From an uncultured Actinomycetota bacterium (GTDB taxonomy: Bacteria; Actinomycetota; Actinomycetes; S36-B12; UBA10799): 64,000 nt of DNA. How positions within the stretch are numbered: position 1 is the first letter of the stretch; each line of letters opens with the position of its first letter. Location: the NCBI GenBank assembly GCA_963704075.1, contig CAVPGV010000010.1, forward strand, positions 80,564-144,563. The letters run 5' to 3'. The notes under the pieces were generated by a model. The model was given only the letters and a program-made list of their open reading frames with translations, was not told where the DNA came from and made no database searches. The position numbers and the translations under genes were made by a program. This document shows positions 46,535 to 51,188 of this stretch, one piece after another.

Positions 46535-47476
46535 ATGGGCTGGAACATGACTGACATTCCCGATCTGTCGGGACACACATACCTCGTGACCGGAGCGACC
46601 TCGGGCCTCGGCCTGGAAAGCGCCAAAGCGCTGGCAGCAGCCGGAGGCCAGGTGATTCTGGCCGGTCGGTCACCGCAGCGGCTGTCAGACGCGCAGCGGC
46701 AGATACCCCGGCAGACGGAATCGCTGCTCGTCGACCTCGCGGATCTTGAGAGCGTGCACAAAGCCGCTGACAACCTCCCAGTGGAAACGTTGGACGTCCT
46801 GATCAACAACGCCGGGATCATGGCGCCTCCACTGGGACGCACCGTAGACGGTTTCGAGACCCAGATCGGGACCAACCATCTCGGGCACTTCGCACTCACC
46901 GGGCTGCTACTCCCCAAGATGCCGGTGGCCAGTCCCGGTGCGGATTCGCGGGTCGTGAACGTGTCGAGCGCCGCTCACAAGATGGGCAAGATGGATCTGG
47001 ACGACCTCAACTACGAGCGTCGCAAGTACTCCAATTGGCCTGCCTACGGTCAGAGCAAACTGGCGAATCTGCTGTTCACCGCCGAACTCGACCGGCGTGC
47101 GCACGAGGCCGGCTGGACCCTGAAGAGCGTTGCGGCGCACCCGGGTTTCTCGTCCACCAACCTGCAGTTCGCCGGGCCCGCGATGGCACACAATCCGGTC
47201 GGCAAGCAGATGACTCGGCTGATGAACGCGGTCATGGGCCAGTCGGCGGAATCCGGGGCACGACCGCAGTTGTATGCCGCCACCATGCCTGACGTGCGCA
47301 GCGGCGAGTATTACGGGCCGAAGGATTTCTTCGAGACCCGAGGGGCACCCAAACGCGTGGGACGCACCTCCGCGGCGAAAGACCAAGCCACCGCCGCTGG
47401 ACTGTGGGAGCTCTCCGAGGACTTGACAGGCGTCCACTACGACATGACGTCGCGGCCGAATTCGTCCACTGAGTAG
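46535..47476 (+). CDS. SDR family oxidoreductase (retinol-dehydrogenase-like)
   Basis: Start at MGWNMTD (46535) or ATG 46547. YLVTGATSGLGLESAKAL, NNAG, VSSAAH, YGQSKLANLLF catalytic motif. The 237 upstream codons of the ORF-track entry do not look like protein. Confidence 0.85.
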   Translation: MGWNMTDIPDLSGHTYLVTGATSGLGLESAKALAAAGGQVILAGRSPQRLSDAQRQIPRQTESLLVDLADLESVHKAADNLPVETLDVLINNAGIMAPPLGRTVDGFETQIGTNHLGHFALTGLLLPKMPVASPGADSRVVNVSSAAHKMGKMDLDDLNYERRKYSNWPAYGQSKLANLLFTAELDRRAHEAGWTLKSVAAHPGFSSTNLQFAGPAMAHNPVGKQMTRLMNAVMGQSAESGARPQLYAATMPDVRSGEYYGPKDFFETRGAPKRVGRTSAAKDQATAAGLWELSEDLTGVHYDMTSRPNSSTE

Positions 47477-47985
47477 GTCCAGACCGCAGCGGGCCAGGTG
47501 CCAGGCATCAGGCCCGCCTTGCGCCACAAGCCGGCAACGAACACCTCCCTGGTCTGCAGTTGTTCCCAGACTGCGGGCAGGAAGGTGCCCCGCCGTCCTT
47601 GCGCCGAGACGACCGCGCCTTGCCGCGGCAGCCGGGCGACCACGTCGTCGTAGGAGGTCGCCGGGAACTCGACGAGCGGACCGAGCACCGAGACCTCGAT
47701 GTGGACCCCACGGAGATCCTGTAGCGGCTCGAAGCGCGGATCTTCGAACGCCGCTGCGTAGGCGTGGTCGGCGATGTCTTGGCCGAGCGGCTGATACGGC
47801 TCAAGTGCACCGATACAGCCCAGCAGGTTCCCGTCGCGGCGCAAGGTGACGAACGCACATCCCCACTCCTGCAGGTAGTCGGGAAGACCCTGAACCGCGG
47901 CCCGGCCGCCGGTGGTCAACCCACGCACGATCGCTGCTTCTGCGATGTCGAGCATCTGCTCATGCTGGTGGTCGGTGAACATCAC
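47437..47985 (-). CDS. amrA: AmmeMemoRadiSam system protein A (AMMECR1 domain)
   Basis: 182 aa. GCAFVTLRRDGNLLGCIGALEP, AFEDPRFEPL, GTFLPAVWEQL. ATGA overlap with the amrB stop. Confidence 0.8.
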   Translation of the reverse strand: MMFTDHQHEQMLDIAEAAIVRGLTTGGRAAVQGLPDYLQEWGCAFVTLRRDGNLLGCIGALEPYQPLGQDIADHAYAAAFEDPRFEPLQDLRGVHIEVSVLGPLVEFPATSYDDVVARLPRQGAVVSAQGRRGTFLPAVWEQLQTREVFVAGLWRKAGLMPGTWPAAVWTYSVDEFGRDVMS

Positions 47986-48746
47986 AGCCCCACGGTGAAG
48001 GCGCCATAGCCGACCACGCGGTCATGGGGGCCCGCAGTGTCGCCGGAATTGCGCAGATCCAACAACTCGACCGGAAGGTCCAGTCGCTCGGCTGCAACCA
48101 GCAGCCCCCGCAGTGGATACGCGCCACATGCGTCCTCGTCGGCAATGTTGCGCCAATCGCGGGCGACGATCCGGGCGGCCGTGGCTGCGTCGCGTTCGCA
48201 TGCCTGCGCATACGGCAGGTAGTGGGACAGGTCCGTGGAGAGGACCACCAAGCTGTTTGGGTCGGCGAGGAACGGCTCAAGCACATCGGCGACGTCGAAC
48301 GGATCGGCCCGACCGACCAGCAGTGGCAGCAGCTGCCATCCGGGCTCCAGTTGCTCCTGCAGGAAAGGCAACTGCACTTCCAGACTGTGCTCGGGTGCGT
48401 GCGGATAGTCGTCGACGGTGACCGGCAGGTCGCGGATCGTCGTCTGATCGATCGCCACGTCCCCCAGGGGGGTGCGCCACGCGGATGCTGCCGGGGCGGC
48501 GATCCCAGCCACCGGAACGAAGTGCGCCGGCCCCGCGAGCACCACGCGCCGCGTGCGATGGACCCTGTGATAGGCGAAGGCTGCCACTGGGCCCGAATAG
48601 ATGTGGCCGGCGTGCGGAACGATGATCCCGGCCGGCTGCTCGGTCCCCTGGGGGGCGGCAGCAAGCCACCCCTGGACCTCGTGGGCCAAAGTGCGTTCAT
48701 CGCCGGTGTAGAACCTGCCGGCGACCGCGGGTTCTCGGACGTCCAT
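47982..48746 (-). CDS. amrB: AmmeMemoRadiSam system protein B (Memo family)
   Basis: Start at MDVREPAVAGRFY (48746), sharing one base with the upstream stop (TGATG). IIVPHAGHIYSG, EHSLEVQLPFL, STDLSHY. Confidence 0.8.
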   Translation of the reverse strand: MDVREPAVAGRFYTGDERTLAHEVQGWLAAAPQGTEQPAGIIVPHAGHIYSGPVAAFAYHRVHRTRRVVLAGPAHFVPVAGIAAPAASAWRTPLGDVAIDQTTIRDLPVTVDDYPHAPEHSLEVQLPFLQEQLEPGWQLLPLLVGRADPFDVADVLEPFLADPNSLVVLSTDLSHYLPYAQACERDAATAARIVARDWRNIADEDACGAYPLRGLLVAAERLDLPVELLDLRNSGDTAGPHDRVVGYGAFTVGL

Positions 48747-50074: not shown

Positions 50075-50084
50075 GGGGTTAAGG

Positions 50085-51188
50085 CTAATGGTGAAGTGTG
50101 ACCGGCAGTCGGCGTCGGCCCCAGGTACCCGGGCTGGCGGCGAAAACACCAGGGACCTGCGTCCCGCAATGCGAACAGGCCCCCCGCGCATCGAGGCTGT
50201 AGGAGAGGATCTCGTACCAGTCGCGTTCGATGACCCGCCGGTGGCAGTTGGGGCAGAACGTCGTGTCCCCATCCGGGTCATGCATGTTGCCGGTGTATGC
50301 GAAACGGACGCCGTGCTCGAGTGCGATCCTGCGGGCTCGGCGCAGCGTCTCCGGCGGGGTCGGGGCGACGTCCATCATCTTCCAGTCCGGGTGGAAGGCA
50401 CTGAAGTGCATCGGTACGTCGGTCCCCAGGTGCTCGACCACCCAGGCCGCCATGCGCGAAAGTTCCTCGTCCGAGTCGTTGTGGCCCGGGACGACCAAGG
50501 TCGTCAGTTCCACCCAGACCGGGGACTCCCTGACCGCCCACTCGATGGTCTCCAGCACAGCATCCAGATCGCCGCCACACACCTTGCGGTAGTAGTCGTG
50601 CGTGAAACCCTTGAGGTCGATGTTGACCGCATCCATCGCGTTGAACATCTCCGCCCGAGGAGCCGGCTCGATGTATCCGGCGGTGACCCCGACCGTCCTT
50701 ATTCCCACCTCGCGGCAGGCCAGCGCGGTGTCGACCGCGTACTCCAGGAAGACGACCGGATCGTTGTAAGTGAAGGCGACGCTGGTGCACCCCAGTCGGC
50801 GCGCCGCATCGGCGATGGCCGCAGGGCTGGCCGAGTCGGCCAACGTGTCGATGTCACGGGACTTGGAGATGTCCCAGTTCTGGCAGAACTTGCACGTGAG
50901 GTTGCACCCGGCGGTCCCGAACGACAGCACCGGCGTCCCCGGGAGGAAGTGGTTGAGCGGCTTCTTCTCGATCGGATCGATGCAGTACCCGCTGGATCGC
51001 CCGTAGGTCGTGGACACGATCTCGTCACCGTCGCGGGCCCGCACGAAACACAGCCCGCGCTGGCCCTCGTGCAGTCGGCAGGCGCGCGGACAGATGTCGC
51101 ACTGGACGCGCCGGTCATCGAGCAGGTGCCAGTACTTCGTCTCGGCAACCTCCCCGAACGAAGCGCTGTCACGCAACTGCGCCCCCAT
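50085..51188 (-). CDS. amrS: AmmeMemoRadiSam system radical SAM enzyme
   Basis: Start at MGAQLRD (51188). N-terminal CDICPRAC cluster, radical-SAM [11 protein letters not shown], C-terminal CPNC..CSHCG. The family is recognised from its context with Memo and AMMECR1 genes. Confidence 0.8.
   Translation of the reverse strand: [367 protein letters not shown]

Follow-up and report, generated by a model that had tools for sequence, protein, structure and literature searches.

The AMMECR1, Memo and radical SAM proteins form a trio that is widespread in archaea and anaerobic bacteria, and two of these proteins have eukaryotic homologues, including human ones. To our knowledge, no function has been established for the trio, so any conserved extra partner of it would be valuable. 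Here, we analyzed a four-gene unit in which the genes of this AmmeMemoRadiSam system, amrS, amrB and amrA, are accompanied by a gene for an adenylate-forming ligase of the ANL superfamily. The unit lies in a 64,000-nucleotide (nt) stretch of DNA, referred to below as the window, from contig CAVPGV010000010.1 of a 3.0-Mb, 27-contig assembly (GCA_963704075.1) of an uncultured high-GC actinobacterium.

The amrS-ligase-amrB-amrA unit and its proteins

Reading of the open reading frames and their translations showed four consecutive minus-strand genes in the order amrS-ligase-amrB-amrA, all within 3.75 kb. The first gene, amrS (positions 50085-51188), encodes a 367-amino-acid (aa) AmmeMemoRadiSam radical SAM enzyme (TIGR04337, Pfam Radical_SAM). 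It is followed by the ligase gene (48746-50074), the 442-aa product of which is acyl-CoA-synthetase-like, carries the Pfam domains AMP-binding and AMP-binding_C, and belongs to an uncharacterized clade. The last two genes are amrB (47982-48746), encoding a Memo-like protein of 254 aa (TIGR04336, Pfam Memo), and amrA (47437-47982), encoding an AMMECR1 protein (TIGR04335, Pfam AMMECR1) of 181 aa when counted from the conserved ATG. An initial annotation, made from the sequence and its translations, had described this minus-strand unit, and it was confirmed as tightly packed, located on one strand and kept across the genus. Every motif quoted in that annotation was found as well, including SGKVQR.

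All three Amr proteins scored above the curated NCBIfam cut-offs. AmrS reached 617 bits on TIGR04337 (cut-off, 220), AmrB reached 230 bits on TIGR04336 (cut-off, 26), and AmrA reached 144 bits on TIGR04335 (cut-off, 99), with Pfam Memo and AMMECR1 scores of 152 and 113 bits for the latter two. AmrS contains a CX3CX2C motif plus auxiliary cysteine clusters at both termini. In an alignment of 20 homologues, C30, C33, C37 and C47 together with C312, C315, C338 and C341 were invariant, in agreement with the extra clusters noticed earlier. With three proteins above the cut-offs and their genes co-located on one strand in one locus, the system was recognized as AmmeMemoRadiSam with a ligase interrupting the trio. 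In other lineages, amrS-amrB-amrA is among the arrangements often seen for this system; the difference here is the 1.33-kb ANL ligase gene between amrS and amrB, which is outside the family descriptions. As the initial annotation stated, no ligase figures in the published description of the trio, and the papers found to mention AmmeMemoRadiSam do so in passing only, with no ligase discussed.

The neighborhood of AMMECR1, radical SAM and ring-opening-dioxygenase-like genes was first noted by Balaji and Aravind (2007; PMC2034487), who used it to predict an RNA base modification, and archaeal AMMECR1 was presented as a top-priority uncharacterized family in a 2019 review (PMC6393860). In a 2026 model, PF01871 (AMMECR1) had the highest importance score among anaerobe-associated Pfam families, and it was found in 51% of anaerobes versus 3% of aerobes (PMC13386939). 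Because of this association with anaerobes, the operon may matter under anoxia.

The ligase matched PF00501 (AMP-binding) with 142 bits and PF13193 (AMP-binding_C) with 60 bits. It carries both domains of the ANL superfamily together with the A3 phosphate-binding loop (P-loop), the A8 hinge and the A10 lysine (SGK(431)VQR), and these motifs are invariant in its family. The closest solved structures were those of FadD13 of Mycobacterium tuberculosis (PDB 3R44), FadD5 (8R2Q), MenE, the o-succinylbenzoate-CoA ligase (5X8F), and malonyl-CoA synthetase (4FUQ). These enzymes and the ligase have in common the ANL fold and the core motifs, namely, the phosphate-binding loop TSGTTGxPKG, YGxTE, the hinge GRxxDxxxxxG and the catalytic lysine. 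However, the similarity was weak in all cases (at most 151 bits), and the ligase is approximately 40 to 60 residues shorter than the FadD types.

No NCBIfam ligase model scored above its cut-off among the best 25 of the 94 models matched. The best score was obtained with PRK12406 (249 versus a cut-off of 701); the scores on FadD4 (214 versus 850) and on the MenE model TIGR01923 (181 versus 330) were likewise far too low, and the ligase fell below the cut-offs of the named acyl-CoA synthetase equivalogs (FadD4, FadD3, FadD5, FadD7, MenE, malonyl-CoA synthase, BaiB and others). Identification as MenE was considered and rejected: the length is MenE-like, but the score is under the cut-off, and three other ANL genes of the genome outscore the ligase on the MenE model. 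Membership of a well-characterized acyl-CoA synthetase clade had been named at the outset as a point to check, and with no cut-off passed and only weak structure matches the ligase was placed in none. The earlier remark that the protein is short at its N terminus holds for its 442 aa; truncation does not, since stand-alone orthologues measure 437 to 474 aa and compactness is a family-wide trait. The ligase is predicted to catalyze the ATP-dependent adenylation of a carboxylate and then the formation of a thioester, most likely with CoA.

Distribution and origin of the embedded ligase gene

The amrS-ligase-amrB-amrA order was found in 13 of the 14 genomes of the window's genus, with equally tight junctions. 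The sole exception was an assembly in 470 contigs, 80% complete, without any of the four genes. Among metagenome sequences, a 68%-identical ligase was likewise embedded, and a 63%-identical one was not. Across the order, sampled with 251 genomes from 47 genera, 47 genomes from 7 genera carried amrS and 60 from 17 genera carried a member of the ligase family; the two were adjacent in one of the seven amr-bearing genera, that of the window. Outside this genus, 6 genomes had both genes, always on different contigs, 41 had only the ligase, 28 had only amr and 163 had neither, which corresponds to an odds ratio of 0.85 and gives no co-occurrence signal. The plain amrS-amrB-amrA trio was present in four relatives outside the genus; three of these belong to other families of the order, and the fourth to the window's own family but to a different genus.

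Wider surveys covered 29 amrS loci across the phylum and 80 diverse metagenome amrS loci (54 to 73% identity; GC content, 32 to 74%). No same-strand ANL gene was found between or directly beside the amr genes in any of these 109 other loci. An ANL-like match lay within 5 kb in 4 of the 80 metagenome loci, on the opposite strand in three and about 3.8 kb away in the fourth; by our own rough estimate from the abundance of the superfamily, this frequency is at chance level, and a real association was rejected. The embedded arrangement is thus real and confined to one genus or lineage.

The amr operons themselves are patchy in the order (7 of 47 genera), a distribution that fits horizontal spread of the trio. 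In one genus (g25), from which the ligase family is mostly absent, they were carried by all 30 sampled genomes listed by either search.

The initial annotation had suggested that the substrate of the system is a carboxylate activated, as an AMP derivative or thioester, before or after the radical SAM chemistry. On this reading, the ligase would have been functionally recruited in the genus as a fourth Amr component, one that activates a carboxylate substrate or product of the system as acyl-AMP or acyl-CoA. The gene does lie inside the operon and not beside it, as recruitment would have it. However, the ligase family occurs mostly in amr-less genomes, most amr genomes lack the ligase, and the arrangement did not recur independently in the 109 other amrS loci. 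The neighborhood survey of amr homologues suggested in the same annotation therefore did not identify the ligase as a general partner; outside the genus, the ligase was absent from this position in nearly all relatives, an outcome that had been named in advance as speaking against the proposal. On the whole evidence, we regard recruitment as a minority possibility that deserves perhaps a fifth of our belief.

The window's genome contains no second member of the ligase's family. Orthologues of the ligase, with 52 to 64% identity, are stand-alone genes between uvrB and a coaE-rpsA-polA block, present in sister families, in another genus of the window's own family and on contigs from metagenomes. 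Seven of the stand-alone loci adjoin uvrB, coaE or both, and orthologues in Aeromicrobium lie near coaE and rpsA. In the window's genome, uvrB and its neighbor coaE diverge from a 146-bp spacer that contains no ligase gene (contig C14, positions 160496-163283, outside the window); rpsA and polA lie on another contig than these two genes. Set against the order uvrB-ligase-coaE-rpsA-polA of the relatives, this indicates that the old locus of the ligase was rearranged in the window's genus.

Phylogenetic placement of the ligase, also suggested at the outset, was carried out with a maximum-likelihood tree. The embedded copies formed a single clade (support, 100/100) nested within the stand-alone family and sister (94/90) to a group of uvrB-coaE ligase genes, and the stem branch of 0.38 was not unusually long. 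The stand-alone actinobacterial ligases, which are annotated only as 'AMP-binding protein' or 'long-chain acyl-CoA synthetase', are orthologous to the embedded ones and of similar compact length, and the two share 108 invariant residues and a TANNNT -10 box 6 to 7 nt before the start codon. They differ in the uvrB/coaE position, in being monocistronic, in having their own stop codon right after ...RLEL(A) and in occurring mostly in amr-less genomes. The embedded ligase gene is an orthologue of these stand-alone genes that has been moved to a new locus.

The reverse event, in which the ligase never moved and was instead flanked by incoming amrS and amrB-amrA genes, would draw on the patchiness of the amr operons and their differing neighborhoods, which make them apparently mobile. 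It would, however, require two insertions, or the splitting of a trio that is contiguous everywhere else. In addition, the flanks in the genus are not uvrB and coaE but other genes (DUF2461, DUF5522 and DUF6992 on one side and a short-chain dehydrogenase [SDR] on the other), and uvrB and coaE of this genome are adjacent on another contig without a ligase. We consider this scenario extremely improbable. A single precise relocation of the ligase gene in the ancestor of the genus is well supported, as it explains the distribution, the old locus and the tree.

Gene junctions, promoter-like elements and neighboring genes

The 10-nt gap between amrS and the ligase gene and the 1-nt overlap (TGATG) between the ligase gene and amrB were correctly given in the initial annotation. 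The amrB/amrA junction had been described as a 4-nt overlap (ATGA); the actual sequence is CTGTGATG, and the two genes overlap by 1 nt (TGATG). Because the GTG at this junction is missing in two genus members, the ATG at 47982 was taken as the conserved start of amrA. Both stop-start overlaps, ligase-amrB and amrB-amrA, were retained in all genus members, a regularity that would also be expected if the ligase had been recruited to the operon.

At the left junction, a leaderless-type -10 box (TANNNT) with the sequence TAGCCT is located at 50082-50087 on the minus strand, 7 nt upstream of the ligase ATG, and its TAG is the stop codon of amrS. TAGCCT preceded the ligase ATG in all 14 embedded copies, with a spacing of 7 nt in the window and 6 nt in the other 13, and it was still kept in one species in which amrS ends approximately 150 nt earlier. 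Among the stand-alone loci from the relatives search and the metagenomes, 16 of 24 had a TANNNT 6 to 8 nt upstream of the aligned start, in five cases exactly TAGCCT; none of five Aeromicrobium and Iamiaceae stand-alone loci had such a TANNNT. The background frequency of TANNNT in the genome is 0.0008 per position. Leaderless transcripts with a TANNNT -10 and no -35 consensus have been mapped in M. tuberculosis (Cortes et al., 2013; PMC3898074), and the position of TAGCCT matches the geometry reported there, with the hexamer ending 6 to 7 nt upstream of the start.

Genome-wide, the distances from TANNNT to candidate starts peaked sharply at 6 and 7 nt, with 254 and 187 cases versus approximately 35 at other offsets. 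This peak implies several hundred leaderless genes in this actinobacterium.

Since a leaderless-type TANNNT box is common to embedded and stand-alone loci, the ligase gene moved together with its own -10 box. In this well-supported sequence of events, the box and the ORF landed in a short amrS-amrB spacer in the ancestor of the genus, so that the -10 hexamer TAGCCT now supplies the stop codon of amrS. We infer from its conservation that the box is still used as a promoter. Two routes to ligase expression would then exist, a leaderless promoter of its own inside the operon and read-through from the putative amrS promoter, and the former would drive amrB and amrA as well. The translational coupling of the ligase to amrS that had been suggested earlier fits this junction less well than a leaderless -10 box brought from the old locus. 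Given this box, independent transcription of the ligase, which had been listed as counting against an Amr role, may apply in part; a ligase that kept its own promoter box is also not what recruitment would lead one to expect.

At the right junction, the Shine-Dalgarno sequence of amrB, GGAGGGGG (48753-48760, minus strand), lies inside a lineage-specific C-terminal extension of the ligase. The closest stand-alone ligases end with ...RLEL(A), and the embedded ligases extend 4 to 8 variable residues past the ...RLxLA end. The stop codon of the embedded ligase overlaps or abuts the amrB start, and the extra codons contain the amrB Shine-Dalgarno sequence. The relocated gene has thus lost its own stop codon, and its reading frame now runs across the amrB Shine-Dalgarno sequence and terminates at the start codon of amrB.

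Upstream of amrS, a -35-like hexamer of a putative amrS promoter, TTGACA (51218-51223, minus strand), lies at a distance of 29 nt from the start codon. A 17-nt spacer separates it from a putative -10, TGCGCT (51195-51200, minus strand), and another 6 nt lie between the latter and the amrS ATG. TTGACA was invariant at a fixed distance from the amrS start in 8 of 8 genus loci compared, in which the surrounding spacer was unalignable, and it was absent upstream of amrS in 15 loci outside the genus. A sigma-70 scan of positions 47000-52000 reported no promoter; the TTGACA/TGCGCT pair was missed because its -10 has no A at position 2. The scan for terminators gave three weak terminator-like sites versus 1.6 expected, and one such site within the 3' end of amrS (50165-50152) was dismissed, as its T-run is not conserved in relatives. 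No element was found in an Rfam search of positions 46500-52700, and hence no riboswitch.

The spacer between DUF6992 and amrS (51189-51432) contains two tandem arrays of a 19-nt repeat, at 51256-51319 (3.4 copies) and 51361-51406 (2.4 copies), the units of which occur essentially nowhere else in the genome. In sister species, this spacer ranges from 55 to 578 nt, and in one species the same position holds tandem and inverted repeats unrelated to these. The only conserved part is the TTGACA promoter-like segment next to amrS.

Three minus-strand genes identified by Pfam lie upstream of amrS, namely, DUF2461 (52027-52656), DUF5522 (51795-52016) and DUF6992 (51433-51843), the last two overlapping on the same strand by 49 nt (51795-51843). 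This string was syntenic upstream of amrS in the genus loci with the upstream flank covered, and its members were not found beside amr operons outside the genus. On the other side, the convergent plus-strand SDR gene (46547-47476; Pfam adh_short) marks the downstream end of the unit. Its 3' end overlaps that of amrA by 40 nt (47437-47476), an overlap conserved across the genus, and the convergent arrangement was also seen in the genus loci with the downstream flank covered and in locus L188. Synteny in the genus thus extends to unrelated flanking genes, and the persistence of gene order does not single out the ligase as an Amr component. A few kilobases downstream of the operon, a gene for a DUF222 and HNH endonuclease protein of 434 aa was found at 43479-44783; in the genomes of actinobacteria, genes of this family are often mobile and present as repeated copies.

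Constraint on the ligase and its role in the operon

All 108 positions that do not vary within the family are unchanged in the embedded clade; among them are the P-loop, YGSTE, the hinge and K431, the lysine of motif A10. Clade-specific fixed substitutions numbered three in the embedded ligases (G135Q, S170A and F175Y), compared with 0, 5 and 8 in three control clades. The ratio of nonsynonymous to synonymous divergence (dN/dS), taken from a 95%-identical relative, the wastewater assembly JADKAV01, at which dS is approximately 0.3 and unsaturated, was 0.11 for amrS, the ligase and amrB and 0.19 for amrA. Because the invariant residues were kept, the clade-specific changes were few and dN/dS was low, the ligase is functional, and nothing points to a new specificity.

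Frameshifts break the ligase gene in three genus assemblies, G004 (locus L043), G010 (L044) and G012 (L045), and these might suggest that the ligase is a decaying, functionless passenger in this genus. In G004, however, the flanking DUF2461, DUF6992 and amrB are fragmented too, and in G012 amrS is also broken and the break in the ligase is an extra C within a C-run. With neighbors also broken and an indel in a homopolymer, decay was rejected for these two assemblies, which display the pattern of long-read assembly errors. In G010, one base is added around residue 140, in a variable loop; this break affects the ligase alone and is the only one left unexplained. The dN/dS of 0.11 and catalytic motifs that are all intact in 11 genomes make decay a very remote prospect.

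The same constraint can be set beside recruitment. All four genes are under equally strong purifying selection, and the ancestral-locus copy is gone, leaving the embedded ligase as the sole copy, as would be expected of a component that had become part of the system. The embedded clade nevertheless has neither an excess of lineage-specific substitutions nor a long stem branch. Activation of the Amr substrate by the ligase thus found no comparative support, with no indication of a changed specificity and with orthologues outside the genus in 41 ligase-only genomes versus 6 with amr.

In general, we consider it fairly probable that the unit is a genus-specific variant of the amrS-amrB-amrA operon that arose by one precise insertion and in which the ligase keeps its ancestral, Amr-independent job. 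The enzyme would still perform its ancestral reaction, forming an acyl-AMP and then probably an acyl-CoA. Several points weigh against this interpretation. The embedded clade groups with stand-alone genes of another family (f4) and not with those of its own family, at moderate support (94/90). The arrangement with its overlapping stop and start codons has persisted through saturated synonymous divergence (dS about 1), and this persistence, together with the loss of the old locus, also fits selection for coexpression with the Amr proteins. Both the proposed internal promoter and the proposed read-through are read from sequence conservation only, and the Amr independence of the ligase is deduced from phyletic patterns.

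If recruitment were true, the operon would be the first chemical handle on AmmeMemoRadiSam, pointing to a carboxylate that could be found by screening the ligase. Because the ligase is not a general component of the system, it gives only a weak hint about the AmmeMemoRadiSam substrate; since the relocation happened once, in a single genus, hypotheses on the trio in other organisms should not be built on it. The unit is instead a clean example of how an operon gains a gene, in which the -10 box of the incoming gene doubles as the stop codon of the upstream gene and its new tail encodes the ribosome-binding site of the downstream one.

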